From the IMG/VR virus record IMGVR_UViG_2711768042_000009: a DNA stretch of 23,314 nucleotides; one strand, 5' to 3'. The notes beneath the pieces were generated by a model. It had not been told where the DNA came from, searched no databases, and saw only the letters and a program-made list of their open reading frames with translations. Source of the DNA: a virus (taxonomy: Duplodnaviria > Heunggongvirae > Uroviricota > Caudoviricetes). The translations under genes were made by a program, and so were the position numbers. This document shows, piece after piece, positions 4,494 through 13,810 of this stretch. Every line of letters begins with the position of its first letter. The stretch's first letter is position 1.

Positions 4494-5347
4494 GCACCAT
4501 CCTGAAATGGGCGGGAAATAAAACCGCCATTATGTCCGAACTGAAAAAACACCTTCCTGCTGGCCCGCGACTGGTTGAACCTTTCGCGGGTTCCTGTGCT
4601 GTGATGATGGAGACGGATTACCCCAGCTATCTTGTTGCGGATATTAATCCTGATTTAATCAACCTCTATAAAAAGGTTGCTGCTGATTGTGAGGCGTTTA
4701 TATCTCGTGCCAGAGCTTTATTTGAGGAAGCAAACAGGGAGGTGGCTTATTACAACATAAGGCAGGAGTTTAATTACTCCACTGAAATTACTGATTTCAT
4801 GAAAGCGGTATATTTCCTGTATCTCAATCGTCACGGTTACCGTGGTTTATGTCGCTATAACAAGAGCGGGCATTTCAACATTCCCTACGGTAATTATAAA
4901 AATCCGTATTTCCCTGAAAAAGAACTTCGCACATTTGCAGAAAAAGCCCAGCGAGCAACGTTTATCTGCGCAAGCTTTGATGAAACGCTGGCGATGCTGC
5001 AGGTGGGGGATGTGGTGTATTGCGATCCGCCGTATGACGGTACGTTTTCCGGCTATCACACTGATGGTTTCACTGAAGATGACCAGTATCACCTGGCATC
5101 CGTTCTTGAACATCGGTCATCAGAAGGACATCCGGTCATTGTTTCTAACAGTGATACATCCCTGATCCGTTCGCTGTATCGCAATTTTACTCACCACTAC
5201 ATCAAGGCAAAACGCAGCATCGGTGTAGCAGCTGGTGAGAGTAAATCTGCAACAGAAATCATCGCTGTTTCCGGGCCGCGCTGCTGGGTGGGATTTGATC
5301 CTTCGCGTGGCGTGGATAGTTCTGCCGTGTACGGAGTGCGTGCATGA
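4490..5347 (+). CDS. dam: DNA adenine methyltransferase (Dam family, N6-adenine, GATC-type)
   Basis: Starts [11 protein letters not shown] (Dam N-terminal SAM-binding motif), contains the catalytic DPPY motif ([10 protein letters not shown]). ATGA overlap with upstream gene. Confidence 0.9.
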
Positions 5348-7758
5348 GCCATGCTGATATGAACAACTGCAGCGGCTTTAACGAGGTCGCCGCAGCATTC
5401 TCATGGAACAGCCCGAAAAAGGCCATTAACCCTTATCTGGACCCGGCGGAAGTTGCGCCGGTTTCTGCGCTTTCAAACCTGATCACTCTGTACGCTACCG
5501 ATAACGAGCAGGAACAACTGCGCCGCGAGGTTCTGAGTGATCAGGTATGGGAGCGTTATTTCTTTAATGAATCACGTGATCCTGTCCAGCGCGAAATGGA
5601 GCAGGATGAGCTCATTAGCCGGGCAAAGCTGGCGCATGAGCAGCAGCGTTTTAATCCGGGCATGGTCATTCTGGCGGACGTTAACGCCCAGCCTTCCCAT
5701 ATCAGCAAGCCGCTGATGCAACGTATTGAATACTTCAGCAGCCTGGGCAGGCCAAAGGCTTATTCCCGCTATTTGCGTGAGACGATTAAGCCATGTCTGG
5801 AACGACTGGAGCATGTACGCGACAGTCAGCTATCCACTTCTTTTCGCTTTATGGCAAGCCATGAAGGGCTGGACGGTCTGCTGATCCTGCCTGAAATGAG
5901 TCAGGATCAGGTGAAACGCCTGTCCACCCTGGTAGCTGCGCATATGAGCATGTGCCTTGATGCCGCTTGTGGCGATTTGTATGCCACCGATGACGTTAAG
6001 CCAGAAGAAATCCGCAAGACATGGGAAAAGGTGGCGGCGGAAACCCTGCGACTGGATGTCATACCGCCTGCGTTTGAGCAACTCCGCCGGAAAAGAAACC
6101 GCCGTAAACCCGTGCCCTATGAACTCATTCCGGGGTCGCTGGCGCGTATGCTGTGCGCCGACTGGTGGTATCGGAAATTGTGGAAGATGCGTTGCGAATG
6201 GCGGGAAGAGCAGTTGCGTGCTGTTTGCCTGGTCAGCAAAAAAGCATCTCCCTATGTCAGCTATGAAGCCGTGATGCATAAACGTGAGCAGCGCCGTAAG
6301 TCGCTGGAGTTTTTCCGTTCTCATGAACTGGTGAACGAAGACGGCGACACGCTGGACATGGAGGATGTGGTAAACGCCAGCAGCAGCAACCCTGCGCATC
6401 GCCGCAATGAGATGATGGCCTGTGTTAAAGGTCTGGAGCTTATCGCGGAAATGCGCGGTGACTGCGCCGTTTTCTACACCATCACCTGTCCGTCACGTTT
6501 CCATTCCACGCTAAATAACGGCAGGCCCAACCCGACCTGGACAAATGCGACGGTAAGACAAAGCAGTGATTATCTGGTCGGCATGTTTGCTGCATTTCGT
6601 AAGGCGATGCACAAAGCCGGGTTGCGCTGGTATGGCGTGCGGGTGGCTGAGCCGCATCATGACGGCACAGTTCACTGGCACCTGTTGTGTTTCATGCGCA
6701 AAAAAGACCGCCGCGCCATTACTGCATTGTTGCGTAAGTTTGCTATCCGTGAAGACCGCGAGGAGCTGGGTAATAACACGGGGCCACGCTTTAAGTCTGA
6801 GCTGATAAACCCGCGCAAAGGAACGCCGACTAGCTACATCGCGAAATACATCAGTAAGAACATTGACGGGCGTGGTCTGGCTGGCGAGATCAGCAAGGAA
6901 ACGGGTAAATCTCTGCGTGATAACGCTGAATACGTTAATGCCTGGGCGTCTCTGCATCGTGTTCAGCAATTCCGCTTCTTTGGCATTCCGGGACGTCAGG
7001 CTTACCGTGAACTGCGATTGCTGGCTGGTCAGGCGGCAAGGCAACAGGGTGACAAAAAAGCAGGTGCGCCGGTACTGGATAACCCGCGCCTTGATGCCAT
7101 CCTGGCTGCAGCTGATGCTGGTTGTTTTGCCACCTACATCATGAAGCAGGGCGGCGTACTGGTTCCCCGTAAATATCACCTCATCAGAACCGCTTATGAA
7201 ATCAACGAAGAGCCGACCGCCTATGGCGATCACGGCATTCGTATTTATGGCATCTGGTCACCCATTGCAGAGGGCAAAATCTGCACTCATGCCGTGAAGT
7301 GGAAAATGGTTCGTAAGGCCGTTGACGTTCAGGAGGCGGCAGCCGACCAGGGCGCTTGCGCCCCTTGGACTCGTGGCAATAACTGTCCCCTTGCTGAAAA
7401 TTTGAACCAACAAGGGAAAGATAAATCAGCTGATGGGGATACCAGGACGGGCATTACCCGCATGGATGACAAGGAGTTGCACGATTACCTGCACAGTATG
7501 AGCAAAAAAGAGCGCCGGGAACTGGCAGCAAGGTTACGCCTGGTGAAACCGAAACGGCGTAAAGACTACAAACAGCGAATTACAGACCATCAGCGACTGC
7601 AGCTCGTGTATGAGCTGAAGTCCAGAGGATTTGATGGCAGCGAGAAAGAGGTCGATTTACTCCTTCGCGGAGGCAGTATTCCGTCAGGAGCAGGCCTGCG
7701 TATCTTCTATCGGAACCAGCGTTTGCAAGAAGATGATCAGTGGCGGAACCTGTATTAA
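5344..7758 (+). CDS. A: Replication initiation protein A (P2 gpA-like rolling-circle endonuclease)
   Basis: 804 aa; contains HUH-type metal-binding motif ([10 protein letters not shown]) and catalytic tyrosine motif ([10 protein letters not shown]) characteristic of P2 A / phiX174 A superfamily; position after the early genes matches P2/186. Confidence 0.9.
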
Positions 7759-7911: not shown

Positions 7912-8100
7912 ATGCAGGACTATTTTTTGGAGTCTTTGAAGCTCCAGCGCATTGATTTTTTTCTTAAGCTTGTAGCGGCTAGTGAGTGTAGTGATGAAGA
8001 GAAGGGGCTGGCTCTGCAGTGGGTTTCTGAATTGACTGATGAACTCATGGCAAAAATCAGAACCCACGAATACAACCGCTCAATGGATGTCATCAGCTGA
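7912..8100 (+). CDS. Small protein, possible N-terminal part of a Tum-like SOS antirepressor
   Basis: ATG 7912 with AGGAGG RBS; 62 aa; directly downstream of the LexA box; followed in a different frame by a DinI-like ORF. Confidence 0.5.
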   Translation: MQDYFLESLKLQRIDFFLKLVAASECSDEEKGLALQWVSELTDELMAKIRTHEYNRSMDVIS

Positions 8101-8110
8101 GGTGACTTTT

Positions 8111-8344
8111 ATGCGCATTGAAATAATGATCGATAAAGAGCAGAAGATTAGCCAGTCTACCCTGGACGCCCTTGAATCCGAGCTTTACCGCAATCTGCGC
8201 CCCCTGTATCCCAAAACGGTAATTCGCATTCGCAAAGGTAGCTCTAACGGTGTGGAACTAACCGGACTGCAACTGGACGAAGAAAGAAAACAAGTGATGA
8301 AAATTATGCAGAAGGTGTGGGAAGACGACAGCTGGCTGCATTAA
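8111..8344 (+). CDS. DinI-family protein (DinI-like / Tum C-terminal domain-like)
   Basis: ATG 8111 with RBS GAGGTGA; 77 aa MRIEIMIDK...LDALESEL...KQVMKIMQKVWEDDSWLH aligns by eye with E. coli DinI (MRIEVTIAK...IDALAGEL...ETWESADDW). Confidence 0.8.
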   Translation: MRIEIMIDKEQKISQSTLDALESELYRNLRPLYPKTVIRIRKGSSNGVELTGLQLDEERKQVMKIMQKVWEDDSWLH

Positions 8345-8479
8345 GAAACGTTGCTGGCGTCTGAACTTGCTTCTGGCGTCAGCAAGGTTGAACAACGAGC
8401 CCTTGCGAGGCGTTAGCTCTGTAGTGCATGTCTATGCCGCATGAGATCGCATGATCGTTTGAGGATCGTTTTTGCTAAG

Positions 8480-8503
8480 GCCCGCCAGAACTGGCGGGCT
8501 TTT
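8480..8503 (+). terminator. Rho-independent terminator (GCCCGCCAG-AA-CTGGCGGGC-TTTT)
   Basis: Perfect 9-bp GC-rich stem, 2-nt loop and T-run on the + strand, downstream of the DinI-like gene and upstream of the cos-like sequence. Confidence 0.5.
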
Positions 8504-8548
8504 GCGTAGATCATGCAGGTGCATGAAAACCACTACATAAAGCGAGCA

Positions 8549-8567
8549 GGCGTGGCGGGGATACGAG
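8549..8567. other. Putative cos (cohesive end) site: GGCGTGGCGGGGATACGAG
   Basis: The first 13 nt are identical to the 186 cohesive-end sequence as I recall it (GGCGTGGCGGGGAAAGCAT; P2 is GGCGAGGCGGGGAAAGCAC). It lies between the replication/tum region and the portal/terminase genes, the expected prophage position. From memory, not verified. Confidence 0.45.
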
Positions 8568-8727
8568 CGCGCGCTCGCTAAGCTTTGTAACACATTGAGT
8601 CAAGTCACTTTTTAGACGCAAATGGCTTGCAAACTTTTTCAACATTAAGGTAATTTGTTAGATATTGATGGAAAAAATTAAGACAAGAGCGATTTTCAAT
8701 TGCTTTTGGGTTGACTAGGTGCATGTT

Positions 8728-9834
8728 ATGACAAGTGGTGTCCCAGTGGTGCTTTCTGACTTTGAGTTAAAGTCGATCTTAGCCTTAACTGAACGTTTTA
8801 CGTGGCATATCGCCAGACCAATTATTGCTTCTTTAGGGCTACCTACAGGTAGAGGGCGTGAAGCAACAAACGACAAAATACTAGAAAGCCTCATTGATTT
8901 TAAAAAGAAAGATAGGCAAAAATTTGACAAAATCATTGCAAGTGTAAATGATTTAGTCTTTGGGCAGGTTGTTTATGGTGAAAAAGCAATATTTAGTTTG
9001 TCTGTAGATAGTCAAGTAATTAAATTACTTGATGATAGATATGCTCTCCAATGGAATATGATGAAGCAACCAACATCATTAGTCGAAACGATTGTTGATG
9101 ATGTTCAATTACAGCATGCTATTAAAAATCAACTTGAGCTTGTTAATTACTCTAAGCAAAATACTCAGTCTATTTTGGTATTTTCATCTATCAGGGAGCT
9201 GGTTGTAAGAGAGAAAGTCCCTCCGTCAAAGTTAGCAGCATACAAACAGTTTGATGAAATCATTGCGAAGAGAAAAGAAAAACGTCAGTGTTTTGATGTG
9301 TGTATATTAGATTCAGCTTCAAATAAAATCCATGTATTAATTGATACTAATGGTAATGTTGTTGGTGATAATATCGTTTTTGCGAAAACGAATTTTATTC
9401 GTGAGTTATATAATTGCGCAGGTTATCAATTTAATTCATCGGAAAAGGATTTTTATCCATTAATTGAGCCAATTTTCAAGCAAAATGTAATGCCATATTC
9501 AAGTTTAAGTTATAAGGTGTTCGATTTGTCATTTTTAACTTATGAGGGAACCACTCATAAGGAAAAGAAAAATGTGGCTAAGAAAGACTTGCGTGATGAT
9601 CTGTTTAATAAAGAGGGCATTAAAGCTGTAGGTAATATTGGTTTATATCGTATTGGAATTAGAGTAGATAGGAATAATCCAAAATTGCAATTGGCGGATA
9701 GTGTAGAGCTTATCATTCCAGGAACATTACGCAGACATTTAGGTGGTAGTGGGTGCTCTCCTGTCAATTATGCTATATTAAGCAAATGTATATCCAAAGA
9801 TGATTTCGAAACCCTCACAAAGCTGATATTATAA
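8728..9834 (+). CDS. Cassette gene 1: large hypothetical protein (368 aa), no recognisable motif; candidate sensor/effector of an accessory system
   Basis: ATG 8728 (in-frame GTG at 8719) with RBS AGGTG. AT-rich: I counted 30% G+C in 9001-9060 versus 47% in a terminase sample, 12301-12360. No Walker A motif seen. Stop TAA 9832-9834 is immediately followed by the next gene's RBS. Confidence 0.8.
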   Translation: MTSGVPVVLSDFELKSILALTERFTWHIARPIIASLGLPTGRGREATNDKILESLIDFKKKDRQKFDKIIASVNDLVFGQVVYGEKAIFSLSVDSQVIKLLDDRYALQWNMMKQPTSLVETIVDDVQLQHAIKNQLELVNYSKQNTQSILVFSSIRELVVREKVPPSKLAAYKQFDEIIAKRKEKRQCFDVCILDSASNKIHVLIDTNGNVVGDNIVFAKTNFIRELYNCAGYQFNSSEKDFYPLIEPIFKQNVMPYSSLSYKVFDLSFLTYEGTTHKEKKNVAKKDLRDDLFNKEGIKAVGNIGLYRIGIRVDRNNPKLQLADSVELIIPGTLRRHLGGSGCSPVNYAILSKCISKDDFETLTKLIL

Positions 9835-9846
9835 TTGGAGTCAGCA

Positions 9847-10281
9847 ATGAAGGATGGTGATATGCCCCAGATCATCAAAGAAATATGTGCAGAGCGCCCT
9901 GATATAGGGGCGCTAGCTTGCTATTTGTATGATGAAATTGGTGTGAGAGCAAAGAAATCGCCTAATATAGCTCTGAGTTATAAAGATTTATTTAGTATCG
10001 TTAATGGTTATAAAGGATGTATACAACCTGAAGCATATGAGCAGGTTGTGTACCCAGCTATACAAATTCTTTGTAGTCCAAAGGTTGAGTTTTTAAAACT
10101 CAATTATTGGTTTATTGATGATTTTCATGATCCTATTGAGCTTGAGTTAGAAGATGTTATAGAGGCTGAAATTAATCAATCTTTAGTAAACCCATTTACA
10201 GGGGAGATTATGTATGACTATAAGTCCTTCGTCTTTCCTTTTTTTACATTAGATGAATCTAAATTAAAGGATATTGTCTGA
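9847..10281 (+). CDS. Cassette gene 2: small acidic hypothetical protein (144 aa)
   Basis: ATG 9847 preceded by GGAG at 9837-9840 (in-frame TTG at 9835); AT-rich; stop TGA overlaps the start of gene 3 (TGATG), indicating translational coupling. Confidence 0.75.
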   Translation: MKDGDMPQIIKEICAERPDIGALACYLYDEIGVRAKKSPNIALSYKDLFSIVNGYKGCIQPEAYEQVVYPAIQILCSPKVEFLKLNYWFIDDFHDPIELELEDVIEAEINQSLVNPFTGEIMYDYKSFVFPFFTLDESKLKDIV

Positions 10282-10946
10282 TGTTAAAAATGTCTGCACC
10301 AATGAGTTTAGCTGAAATTGATAATGATATTTTTCTTCAGCGTATCAATGCTTCTATTACTCGCGTTAGGTTTGCTCTCCAGTCGTATGAGAACTTCAAA
10401 CAGTTTGTAAGAATTGAGCTTGATTCTGCTGTACAGGCAATTGAGGAAAATTCAAATAAATTGAATTTTGATTTAACAGAAGATCAGCTTACTTTAATTT
10501 TACTGGCAAATATAAAAAATAAAGATATGGGAATTGAAGCATATCATGAAAATAATCAACGAGGTCATTGTGATATAACAATAAAGTTGAATAGATTTAC
10601 TTGGCATGGCGAGGCCAAAAAACACACTGGTTCATATAGTTATTTATTTAAAGGGTATGCACAACTCACTGAGCGATATAGCACTGGTACTGTAGACAGT
10701 GCAAGTGGTGGGTTAATTATATATACGCGTAATAAAAAATGTAATGAAATGATGACTAAGTGGAAGGCTCATTTAGATAAATCGGCTCCAAGAATTCATG
10801 CTTGTAAGTCTATCTCGATAACTCCTTGTAAGAGAAACCCATTGGTTTTTTACAGTCAACATACTCACACTGTTAGTCAACTTAATTATGAGGTTATACA
10901 CTACCCTGTAAACCTTTATCATGAGCCTGTAGACTCAGAGCTTTGA
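10281..10946 (+). CDS. Cassette gene 3: hypothetical protein with PD-(D/E)xK-like nuclease motif (221 aa)
   Basis: ATG 10281; contains ...GIEAYHENNQRGHCDITIKLNRFTWHGEAKKH..., which fits the E / hhD / ExK signature of restriction-endonuclease-fold nucleases (D and ExK 13 residues apart). Motif-level only. AT-rich, co-oriented with genes 1-2. Confidence 0.75.
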   Translation: MLKMSAPMSLAEIDNDIFLQRINASITRVRFALQSYENFKQFVRIELDSAVQAIEENSNKLNFDLTEDQLTLILLANIKNKDMGIEAYHENNQRGHCDITIKLNRFTWHGEAKKHTGSYSYLFKGYAQLTERYSTGTVDSASGGLIIYTRNKKCNEMMTKWKAHLDKSAPRIHACKSISITPCKRNPLVFYSQHTHTVSQLNYEVIHYPVNLYHEPVDSEL

Positions 10947-10981
10947 ATATGATTTTTGTTAGTTTTATAACTATATAATGT

Positions 10982-11005
10982 AAAAACCTGCATATGCAGG
11001 TTTTT
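10982..11005. terminator. Bidirectional rho-independent terminator (AAAAACCTGCATATGCAGGTTTTT)
   Basis: Perfect palindrome ACCTGCA-TA-TGCAGGT flanked by an A-run and a T-run, in the 63-bp gap between the convergent cassette gene 3 (+) and portal gene (-). Confidence 0.6.
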
Positions 11006-11009
11006 AAGA

Positions 11010-12047
11010 TTATTGAATATCTAAGTTATAATCCTCAAAATGTATTACATCCTCCTTTAACCAGTTGTTCAGCTCTAATAGGCTCTTTTGTAGTGGCCTC
11101 AATTCATTTCGCACAAAAACTCGACTCGCCTTCTCCACATCCCCAAAACCCCCAACATTATTCGGCATAATCCCCATCATTTGCGGCGGTACGCGGTGTG
11201 CTGCCATCATGTCATCGCGACTGACATTTTTGATATTCAGAAACTCATCCTTCGCCGCGACTTCTGACAGAGGAATGATCTGAAGCCCGTCCTTTTTGCC
11301 GTTAGGCGAGTACATAAACAGGTTGCGGAAGTTGCCTGGACCTTTGGCGCTTTTCATCGCGTTGCGGAGGTTGTTCACATCCTCCTGATTCTGCGCGGCG
11401 TCGGTCATGTACATGATGAAGCCTGCATGGCTGCCGTTGATGTAATACTTACGGCGGAACAGCGTGGCGGATTCGTTGAGCAGGGCGGATGGAATGGCAG
11501 AAAGATAGCCGGGCAAGCCGTAGATCTCCTGGTTGATGTCCGGTTCCATCAGATGAAAAATGCTGCCTTTCGTGAACTGATACGGCTGGGTTGTCATACC
11601 GTATTGCACAAACCAGTAGGTATCCAGGTCTAACCCGCGTCGGGTGTATTTTGCCAGCGCAGGCTCAAGGGCGATAACTTCACCGAAGCGGTTCGTGCGT
11701 TTCTCCAGGTAGGCGTTACCAAATACCAGGTAGTCCTGCACAAAACGTGAAAAAGCCTGCTGGCTGAGCAGCGGGTGAGGGATATAGGTACTGGTCAGAA
11801 TGTTGCACTTTACTGCAATCGGGGAACTGTGATGCACGGCAGCGCGGAAGGTGCGCGCCAGTCCGTCAAAGCTGACGGGCGGCTCATACCAACGGTCCAT
11901 CTGTACGCATTCCACATAGTCCAGTAATTCTCGGCGGTCCAGAACAGGAACGGGATCGCCGAAGCTGAATGCTTCGGCTGTAGTTTGACTTTTAAGCTGG
12001 ATCTGATTCGTCGCCGCAGCGCGGTTCTTCTTACTCTTTCCCATCAA
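11010..12047 (-). CDS. Q: Portal protein (P2 gpQ-like)
   Basis: 345 aa, size and position (downstream of and overlapping the terminase large subunit on the minus strand) match P2 Q (344 aa); sequence recognised as P2-family portal. Confidence 0.9.
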   Translation of the reverse strand: MMGKSKKNRAAATNQIQLKSQTTAEAFSFGDPVPVLDRRELLDYVECVQMDRWYEPPVSFDGLARTFRAAVHHSSPIAVKCNILTSTYIPHPLLSQQAFSRFVQDYLVFGNAYLEKRTNRFGEVIALEPALAKYTRRGLDLDTYWFVQYGMTTQPYQFTKGSIFHLMEPDINQEIYGLPGYLSAIPSALLNESATLFRRKYYINGSHAGFIMYMTDAAQNQEDVNNLRNAMKSAKGPGNFRNLFMYSPNGKKDGLQIIPLSEVAAKDEFLNIKNVSRDDMMAAHRVPPQMMGIMPNNVGGFGDVEKASRVFVRNELRPLQKSLLELNNWLKEDVIHFEDYNLDIQ

Positions 12048-13810
12048 AAAATCTCCACAATATTGCTGGCATTGGCGGATTCGCCCTGCAGCGGTTCGTT
12101 AAACAGTGCGTGCATCGTTGCCCAGGCCAGATCGGCGTGGCTGGCTTCTTCGCTGCGGCTGGCTTCATAGGTCGGGCGGTTGCCGCTGGCGGTGGTAGCG
12201 CGACGGATTGCCATAAATGATTGCGCAATGTCGGTGTGCCCGGCGTCAAACTCCAGACGGCGGTGGCTGATAATGTCGTAGGCCTTGAGCACCAGGGCGT
12301 TTTTAACGTTGGGGTTGTAGACAAACTCCCGGACGGCAGGAAAGAATGCTTTCACGTTCTCGTAAACCCCGTGACCAACGCCGGTTGAGTCGATACCGAT
12401 ATAAGTCACGTTGTACTGTTCGGTCAGTTTTTTGATGGCGTCAGCCTGAGCGCGGAAGTCCATCCCGCGCCACTGGTGACGCTCAAGAATGCGGAATTTA
12501 CCGCCCGGTACGGCTGGCGGTGCCACCACCACGCATCCGGCACTGTCGCCGTTCTGAGTACCTTTTGCGGGGTCATAACCGATCCATACTTCGCGCCAGC
12601 CAAACGGGCGCAGGGCCAGTGCATGAAAGTCGGTCCAGACTTCCCAACTGTCCACCATGCACGCCTGCAGTTCGCTGAGCGGGAACACGGACGCGAGATC
12701 GTCCACGAACTCACACATCAGCAGGTTCTGGTATTCGTCCGGGCTGTATTCCATGCGCAACTGGTCAAGGTCGAACAGGTTACAGCCGCCGCGCACCGCA
12801 TCTTCCACGGTGACTATCTGGCGGTATTGTCCGTCTGCGCACAGCAGGCCGGGGGCCAGATTGCTGTGGGACAGGTCGATGTCCACCTTATCGGCTTTGT
12901 TGCGCCCACGGTTGAACAGCGCACCGGACCAGAACGGATAAGCACTGTGTGTCAGGCTGGATGGCGTGGAAAAATAGGTCTGTCGCCATTTTTTGTGAAT
13001 AGCCATACCGGAAGCCACTTTGCGCAGCTCCTGGAATTTCGGTATCCAGAAATATTCATCCAGATACAGGTTGCCGTGATAACTCTGGGCCGTGCGGGCA
13101 TTGGTGCCGAGGAAGTAAAGCGTGGCCCCGTTAGGAAGCACCATCGGATCGCCTTTCAGCTCCACCTCCACTTCTTTAGCGAAGTCGATGATGTACTGCT
13201 TAAAGACGTGGGCCTGTGCCTTGCTGGCGGAAAGGAAAATCTGGTTACGTCCGGTAAGCAGAGCGTCAATCAGGGCTTCACGGGCAAAGTAAAAGGTCGC
13301 GCCGATCTGGCGTGACTTCAGCAGGTTGCGGATGCGGTTGGTTTTTCCGGCTTCCCACCAGTGGCGCTGGTAGTTGAACATGGAGGAATGGAAGATTTCT
13401 TCCAGCTTCTCAATCTGCTCATCGGTGAAAACATTCTTTTCCGGCTGACGGCGCGGGCCTTTGTTGCGGTTGGCGACGTTAGGGTTTAAGTCGGCTTCGT
13501 TGCCGCCATTGTTAAACTTGCCGATCCGCGCGTGGCGTTCCGACTGGCGCGCCAGCAGGTCAATCTCTTTGAAATCTTTCCCTTCTTTGTGCTCCTTCAT
13601 AATGAGCTGGCAGTAGCGTGCGGCGGTGGTGAGCTGCATCTGATCCAGCGGCCCATAGTCACCCCACTTGTCGCGTTTTTTCCAGCTGTGAACGGTTGCA
13701 ACTTTCTCGCCCAGCATTTCAGCAATGCGGGCTACGCGGTATCCCTGAAAGTACAGCAGCATGGCCTGCCGACGGGGATCGAGATCTGCGGGTGTCAGTG
13801 TGGTGTTCAT
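12044..13810 (-). CDS. P: Terminase large (ATPase) subunit (P2 gpP-like)
   Basis: 588 aa (P2 P is 590 aa); divergent from the O-N-M-L operon as in P2; stop overlaps Q start. Confidence 0.9.
   Translation of the reverse strand: MNTTLTPADLDPRRQAMLLYFQGYRVARIAEMLGEKVATVHSWKKRDKWGDYGPLDQMQLTTAARYCQLIMKEHKEGKDFKEIDLLARQSERHARIGKFNNGGNEADLNPNVANRNKGPRRQPEKNVFTDEQIEKLEEIFHSSMFNYQRHWWEAGKTNRIRNLLKSRQIGATFYFAREALIDALLTGRNQIFLSASKAQAHVFKQYIIDFAKEVEVELKGDPMVLPNGATLYFLGTNARTAQSYHGNLYLDEYFWIPKFQELRKVASGMAIHKKWRQTYFSTPSSLTHSAYPFWSGALFNRGRNKADKVDIDLSHSNLAPGLLCADGQYRQIVTVEDAVRGGCNLFDLDQLRMEYSPDEYQNLLMCEFVDDLASVFPLSELQACMVDSWEVWTDFHALALRPFGWREVWIGYDPAKGTQNGDSAGCVVVAPPAVPGGKFRILERHQWRGMDFRAQADAIKKLTEQYNVTYIGIDSTGVGHGVYENVKAFFPAVREFVYNPNVKNALVLKAYDIISHRRLEFDAGHTDIAQSFMAIRRATTASGNRPTYEASRSEEASHADLAWATMHALFNEPLQGESANASNIVEIF

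Follow-up and report, generated by a model that had tools for sequence, protein, structure and literature searches.

An acidic winged-helix protein as candidate adaptor for a PD-(D/E)xK nuclease in a three-gene cassette of an Escherichia coli P2-like prophage

What does a small, strongly acidic protein do when its gene is lodged in the middle of a short gene cassette, directly ahead of a putative nuclease gene? The question is raised by gene 2 (9847..10281, + strand) of a stretch of 23,314 nucleotides, to which we will refer as the window (IMG/VR record IMGVR_UViG_2711768042_000009, Caudoviricetes), and which is part of an E. coli P2-like prophage. The original prediction, made from the letters alone, had offered an inhibitor, an antitoxin or an adaptor for the nuclease encoded next door, and had suggested a toxin-antitoxin-like logic. 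The reading favoured here, to which we assign a probability of about 0.6, is that gene 2 encodes the acidic winged-helix adaptor of an uncharacterised three-gene anti-phage cassette, the conserved core of which docks the gene 3 nuclease and links it to a variable partner.

In the prophage, the replication endonuclease gene A (5344-7758) is followed by a 62-aa acidic ORF and a DinI-like gene (together at 7912-8344), the former belonging to PHROG 698, whose function is unannotated, and the latter matching Pfam DinI (E 7e-23). The portal (Q) and terminase genes (11010-13810), beyond which the capsid and later genes are found, are convergent with the cassette. Between DinI and the portal gene lies a 2.2-kb AT-rich block (32-37% GC vs about 54% in the flanks) composed of three ORFs on the same strand, namely gene 1 (8728..9834), gene 2 and gene 3 (10281..10946). 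A terminator-like GC-rich hairpin followed by TTTT (8474..8505, + strand; an inverted repeat with 15-nt arms, 87% complementary), which is not among the calls of a consensus terminator scan, ends the upstream orf62/DinI unit, and the cassette thus appears to be a separate transcription unit. On the distal side, a perfect palindromic hairpin of the form AAAAACCUGCA-UAUG-... (10981..11006, assigned to neither strand), with A and U runs on its flanks, reaches a minimum free energy of -17.6 kcal/mol (computed over 10960-11020; z -4.8, with 0 of 200 shuffles as stable), and likely terminates transcription from both sides, i.e., from gene 3 and from the convergent portal gene Q. As both hairpins bracket the block, genes 1-3 look like one transcription unit; a simple promoter scan gave no signal above chance.

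Positions 8545-8580 of the window read GGCGTGGCGGGGATACGAGCGCGCGC, which we take to resemble the cos region of the P2 family; if this segment is cos, the cassette is situated on its portal side and not on its gene A side. The reverse complement of the segment recurs in the clone pFR109 of Table S2 of Rousset et al. (2022). The cassette occupies the cos-proximal gpA/Q interval, a location described as a P2 defence hotspot (Rousset et al., 2022; PMC9122126); the same work lists it as the unnamed system 91, with 36 occurrences (Table S5B), includes both of its E. coli variants (Table S5A), and does not count it among the systems that were cloned. It is found in 21 of 5426 complete E. coli genomes, each time as three hypothetical proteins, and no near-identical copy is present in the INPHARED phage collection. 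An identical cassette in E. coli WY517-2 is accompanied by an extra 678-nt hypothetical gene (WP_000700647; L001:5099-5776) between DinI and gene 1, and its presence there and absence from the window point to modular turnover within the hotspot.

Gene 2 extends from the ATG at 9847 to the TGA at 10281 and encodes 144 aa, with N-terminal helices and a predicted winged-helix core. The small acidic product that had been predicted is correct in its coordinates, its length and the acidic stretch singled out: the protein has a pI of 4.38 and a net charge of -12.4 (25 D+E vs 13 K+R), and the acidic stretch DDFHDPIELELEDVIEAEINQ (residues 91-111; 10117..10179, + strand) covers a strand and the helix 101-110 (ELEDVIEAEI). 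Its N-terminus is uncertain by five residues, because a second in-frame ATG at 9862 (M6) corresponds to the start of the distant homologues. Gene 2 is a real gene and not a chance ORF, on account of its annotation in RefSeq (WP_021580614), its match to PHROG 11490 (E 3e-48), a dN/dS of 0.14 and a family of 78 cluster representatives, most of 130-150 aa, retrieved by an exhaustive HMMER profile search of 1.84 billion cluster representatives. The dN/dS values against an 85%-identical E. coli variant (0.13, 0.14 and 0.06 for genes 1, 2 and 3, respectively) indicate that all three cassette genes are under purifying selection. Acidity is a trait of the family, with a median pI of 4.74 over 67 gene 2 representatives (58 of them below 5.5) and median domain charges of -11.3 for standalone (n=61) and -7.9 for fused (n=22) forms.

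Gene 2 is also the fastest-diverging of the three genes: in L002, L003, L009 and L008, it is 83, 45, 31 and 29% identical to the copy in the window, compared with 90, 62, 58 and 54% for gene 3 and 84, 56, 48 and 40% for gene 1. The best-conserved part of the family is a C-terminal core (residues ~63-135; 10033..10251, + strand), marked among 83 unique domains by A71, L75, L83, F89, D91, the (H/N)115-P116-x-T118-G119 motif, P131 and F133, and supported by BLAST and HMM matches to fusion proteins. Genes 1-3 have no significant match in Pfam, NCBIfam or PADLOC, each of them matching a PHROG without assigned function (12777, 11490 and 9664, respectively), and in particular gene 2 matches no antitoxin or immunity family in the scans of those three collections.

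Of the coupling of gene 2 to both of its neighbours, as originally proposed, the downstream half is real: the stop codon of gene 2 and the start codon of gene 3 share one base in a TGATG (10279..10283, + strand; TGA at 10279-10281 and ATG at 10281-10283). The upstream junction is close but shows no overlap, as the TAA of gene 1 (9832-9834) is separated from gene 2 by a 12-nt spacer, in which a GGAG Shine-Dalgarno-like motif can be read (9837..9840, + strand, 6 nt 5' of the ATG). This asymmetry recurs in related loci. A gene 3-anchored scan drew on a single genome for each species (23 loci) and on JGI metagenomes (66 loci), with HMMs of the three families run over all ORFs. Among the 90 loci in which 450 nt or more precede the gene 3 homologue, 89 have a gene 2 domain directly upstream of it; since some of these loci are near-identical copies of the window's cassette, they are not independent, and the counts make them look more so than they are. 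In the one locus that departs from this rule, the gene 3 homologue is a fragment of 84 aa. In 75 of the 89 loci, the stop codon of gene 2 overlaps the start codon of gene 3 (by -4 in 42, -1 in 20, -8 in 10 and other values in 3). The junction between genes 1 and 2 is looser: of 62 loci, 49 have a gap of 1-30 nt, and in 10 the two genes overlap or directly abut. The loci with a gene 2 domain comprise 62 with gene 1, gene 2 and gene 3, 23 fusions, and 4 with a free gene 2 and no detectable gene 1, one of which (L099) carries upstream a 362-aa ORF of a size similar to gene 1. A look-up anchored on gene 2 instead, covering distant family members and among them the weakest match, returned a gene 3 homologue directly downstream in five of six contexts.

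The linkage is kept across very different genetic elements and hosts. The gene 3-anchored loci belong to Gammaproteobacteria, Alphaproteobacteria and an Acidimicrobiales MAG, and the same three genes in the same order are found in a Cronobacter lambdoid prophage (between lambda P and NinB), in a Citrobacter island beside a WYL regulator and a pyocin, in a Providencia P4-like satellite and in a Serratia P2 remnant; a metagenomic cassette with only ~20-30% identity still contains all three genes. The gene 2/gene 3 pair is a mobile module, of which we found no description in the literature searched. In the P2-like remnant of Serratia ureilytica (L009:2262-3900), a PRTase-CE and NADAR gene pair is located directly upstream of the cassette and may represent another defence pair in the hotspot. 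The cassette on a 2.9-kb contig of a 'Turicibacter' MAG (L014) shares 56% identity with the enterobacterial one, and its architecture is near-identical to that of a Plesiomonas MAG contig from the same study; it is probably a binning artefact rather than an occurrence in Firmicutes.

The designation of the neighbouring gene as a putative nuclease is borne out at the level of predicted fold and motif. Gene 3 (+ strand) encodes a protein of 221 aa, in which an N-terminal helical region is followed by a domain modelled with the alpha/beta core of restriction endonuclease-like proteins, i.e., a PD-(D/E)xK fold. Its catalytic-type motif (10572..10619, + strand) is found in the segment GHCDITIK...WHGEAKK and consists of D98 (10572-10574) and E111-A-K113 (10611-10619); in the model, D98 immediately precedes the strand 99-103, and E111 and K113 belong to the strand 106-115, so that the D ... 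(D/E)xK motif is placed on adjacent strands. Two alignments, of 31 and 21 sequences and extending down to 27% identity, show no variation at E67, D68, H89, D98, E111, K113, Q128 and Y133. Gene 3 is regarded here as a putative nuclease effector. Sequence and profile searches of the PDB with genes 1 and 3 returned nothing.

Regarding gene 2 itself, the predicted model, built on 8 sequences, consists of a helix bundle followed by a beta hairpin 'wing', as in winged-helix proteins (pLDDT of 86 for the best of five models and 65-71 for the other four). Its fold matches are mostly protein-binding, scaffolding winged helices, although this fold is common and membership of a family is not thereby established; no immunity or antitoxin protein figures among the 60 matches listed, and a BFVD fold search gave no informative match. 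Given the winged-helix model, weak matches of gene 2 to CRM1_C and armadillo repeats were discarded as helical or compositional noise. The protein displays no catalytic signature and, at the charge and pI given above, no basic DNA-contacting surface. DNA mimicry is frequent among the small, strongly acidic proteins encoded in phage accessory regions, and both this precedent and the winged-helix fold lend some appeal to the idea that gene 2 is a phage DNA mimic or anti-restriction protein, or else a winged-helix transcription factor for the operon, functionally unrelated to gene 3 in any of these guises. We consider it very improbable, as the link to gene 3 in 89 of 90 loci persists in chromosomal islands and non-phage contexts, gene 2 is situated mid-operon and coupled to gene 3, and a net charge of -12 argues against the DNA binding expected from a transcription factor; furthermore, an anti-restriction protein would not be expected at the C-terminus of restriction enzymes, where the gene 2 domain is also found.

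Indeed, in 23 loci the whole gene 2 domain (HMM positions ~1-133) forms the C-terminus of another protein, of 420-1836 aa in total, and a gene 3 homologue overlaps and directly follows every fusion type listed. The largest ones, of 1765-1836 aa, are complete Type ISP enzymes with Mrr_cat_2, helicase, coupler, MTase and TRD/specificity domains, one of them matching the full-length PADLOC model over residues 62-1696. In a complete Type III Res subunit, residues 1-1018 align with positions 1-987 of a 989-position profile, and the gene 2 domain is an add-on; it is likewise fused to ResIII helicases of 996-1026 aa. The loci noted for complete Type ISP and Type III enzymes with this extra domain are L062, L075, L078, L084, L085 and L088, with ORFs of about 1765-1836 aa, and L059:6236-9751. 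The Type ISP and Type III fusions keep their own nuclease domains (Mrr_cat_2 or RE_endonuc) beside the small BamHI-like nuclease encoded downstream, and the notion that Type ISP fusions have no nuclease of their own and use gene 3 as a substitute was ruled out, since the full-length loci retain Mrr_cat_2.

Other fusions involve proteins of a different nature. One partner is a TIR_2 protein containing a hydrophobic segment that appears to span the membrane. In fusions of 630-671 aa, the first 350-400 residues match PADLOC LmuA (E 8e-40 and 1e-27) and bear a Rossmann FAD/NAD signature; by sequence, this N-terminal domain is probably an FMO-type Lamassu effector, a kind of domain reported for long Lamassu (PMC12663957). 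Directly downstream of one such fusion and its gene 3 homologue (L011:3847-7569), a 315-aa protein with a weak match to HamA (DUF1837) was observed, together with a DEAD/ResIII helicase exceeding 1200 aa; these look like a Hachiman-like neighbour in a defence-island setting. Finally, a 422-aa ORF in a metagenome contig (Ga0189291_100275; L095:131-1399) joins EF-Tu, from about its residue 150 to its C-terminus, to the gene 2 domain; the EF-Tu part corresponds to domains 2 and 3, the C-terminal two thirds of the factor (Pfam E 7e-39 and 5e-19), and is followed by a linker of ~50 aa, the gene 2 domain and a gene 3 homologue. This fusion resembles a truncated EF-Tu wired to the nuclease module, where it possibly acts as a decoy.

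The near-constant neighbourhood of gene 3, the translational coupling, the lack of a catalytic signature and the occurrence of the domain either free or fused to unrelated proteins all argue for gene 2 as a docking or adaptor module, and it is this member of the original triad of inhibitor, antitoxin and adaptor that comparative genomics and structure prediction favour. The toxin-antitoxin-like logic attached to it found no support. In its classical form, gene 3 would be a nuclease toxin, stoichiometrically neutralised by gene 2 as a labile antitoxin that is degraded on infection. Pairs of a nuclease toxin and an acidic immunity protein, such as colicin E DNase-Im and CdiA-CT/CdiI, count among the closest known systems. 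Gene 2 belongs to no recognised antitoxin or immunity family, the genes are kept as a three-gene unit in 62 loci, and at identities as low as about 20%, instead of a two-gene unit with a small free antitoxin, and its domain forms the C-terminus of enzymes of up to ~1800 aa, a setting unlike that of a small labile antitoxin. The protein is, in addition, too acidic for a DNA-binding autoregulator. We therefore regard classical toxin-antitoxin logic as unlikely.

The adaptor reading calls for a partner, and in the window this would be the product of gene 1 (+ strand; WP_021580613), a basic protein of 368 aa (pI 8.9) matching PHROG 12777 (E 2e-113). It finds no match in Pfam (29 family members included), PADLOC, NCBIfam or the PDB, no Pfam ATPase family matches it, and on reading the sequence no Walker A-like GxxxxGK[ST] is seen. 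In DefensePredictor, gene 1 (entry WP_021580613.1 in NZ_CP091029.1) figures as a 'predicted novel defense gene' with a log-odds of 8.40; the text searched gives no sign that the gene was cloned. We infer that gene 1 is the variable partner of the cassette, as a sensor or specificity subunit, its place being taken elsewhere by the proteins to which the adaptor is directly fused.

The fusions alone do not reveal which component is the sensor and which the executor. As other systems use TIR and LmuA-type domains as effectors, genes 2 and 3 could be a sensing core in which gene 3 is a DNA-recognising PD-(D/E)xK protein and the variable partner is an effector tethered through gene 2, much as LmuA is by LmuB/C. 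Against this reversal of roles, which we judge improbable, stand the invariance of the catalytic-type residues of gene 3 down to 27% identity, arguing for an active nuclease, and the nature of some other partners, namely an EF-Tu fragment and complete restriction enzymes which already sense DNA, that are not effector-like. An additional argument is provided by a P4-like satellite (Logan SRR32633179; L106:2202-3987) without gene 3, in which the gene 2 member P0116 sits between an unrelated 233-aa gene and a gene for a 178-aa multi-transmembrane protein, i.e., a protein of a typical effector class in the downstream position. This locus suggests that the downstream effector can be swapped too, and its membrane protein, together with the invariant residues and the non-effector-like partners, favours the arrangement in which the partner senses or targets and gene 3 executes.

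P0116 is also the only basic gene 2 member examined (pI 9.06). In gene 2, a fold that usually binds DNA bears a conserved negative charge, which suggests contact with a basic surface on a protein. A hint that gene 3 provides this surface comes from the single basic exception, which lacks the nuclease as partner; gene 2 could then restrain the nuclease as well as dock it. By analogy with acidic nuclease inhibitors, and with this one counter-example, the conserved charge is compatible with a restraint of gene 3 by gene 2, which may thus form part of its role.

Under the adaptor reading, genes 1-3 would constitute one operon encoding an anti-phage system with the gene 3 nuclease as effector. The gene 2 core would dock the PD-(D/E)xK nuclease by binding protein, possibly the basic DNA-binding surface of the latter, and would link it to the variable partner, i.e., the gene 1 product here or the protein directly fused to the adaptor elsewhere. 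Gene 2 may also hold the nuclease in a latent state up to the point at which infection is sensed by gene 1 or by the fused partner, and the tight translational coupling between genes 2 and 3 would fix the proportion of adaptor to nuclease. That the cassette is an anti-phage system is plausible. As a more tentative extension, which we hold as a possibility and not as an expectation, genes 2 and 3 may be a portable plug-in, in which a docking domain and a latent nuclease are attached to diverse host proteins and act as a guard or second-line effector, to be set free once a phage engages or inhibits the attached sensor or the first-line defence. The hosts of such a unit could include gene 1, Type ISP and Type III enzymes, TIR-membrane proteins, Lamassu-type effector domains and, as a decoy, the truncated EF-Tu.

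How does the cassette relate to known systems? The systems of the P2 gpA/Q hotspot, such as old/tin and the three-gene 'hp+hp+hp', occupy the same slot between gene A and gene Q beside cos, and the cassette is likewise small, AT-rich and unannotated. The 'hp+hp+hp' system is presumably the Rst_3HP of DefenseFinder. Identity of the cassette with this published and validated system was ruled out by hmmsearch and blastp against the pFR109 proteins (bit scores of ~3 or less), and direct comparison excluded kinship of its proteins to Tin or P4 cII, with no similarity found. Lamassu (LmuA/LmuB/LmuC), Hachiman HamA/HamB, McrBC and PrrC on EcoprrI follow a like logic, with a partner that holds or recruits a nuclease. 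Unlike Lamassu, the cassette contains no SMC-like LmuB or any ATPase, and none of genes 1-3 has a PADLOC Lamassu match; LmuA-type domains appear only in the related fusion proteins, at their N-terminus, and the nuclease is a separate, small BamHI/OkrAI-type protein instead of the Cap4 domain of LmuA. With respect to Hachiman, McrBC and PrrC, the P2 cassette differs in having neither helicase nor GTPase and in that the link would be made by a dedicated winged-helix adaptor domain, free or fused; PrrC is, moreover, an anticodon RNase and not a PD-(D/E)xK protein like gene 3. In the literature searched, neither a functional study of the cassette nor a record of an anti-phage test was found.

From the point of view of annotation, this analysis gives provisional roles to three 'hypothetical proteins', with PHROG 11490 as a predicted winged helix and PHROG 9664 as a predicted PD-(D/E)xK nuclease fold. 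The natural fusions to restriction enzymes, TIR, a Lamassu-type domain and an EF-Tu fragment are ready-made test cases for the assembly of sensor, adaptor and effector, and could also show whether restriction enzymes carry back-up nucleases. If the main reading is true, an uncharacterised anti-phage system would be present in several bacterial phyla, on P2-like prophages, P4-like satellites, lambdoid prophages and genomic islands, and gene 2 would represent a new adaptor domain, whose only recognisable job is joining a BamHI-like nuclease to interchangeable partners. Should the plug-in extension also prove true, it would reveal a general, previously undescribed layering of an abortive nuclease onto immunity proteins by means of one winged-helix adaptor.
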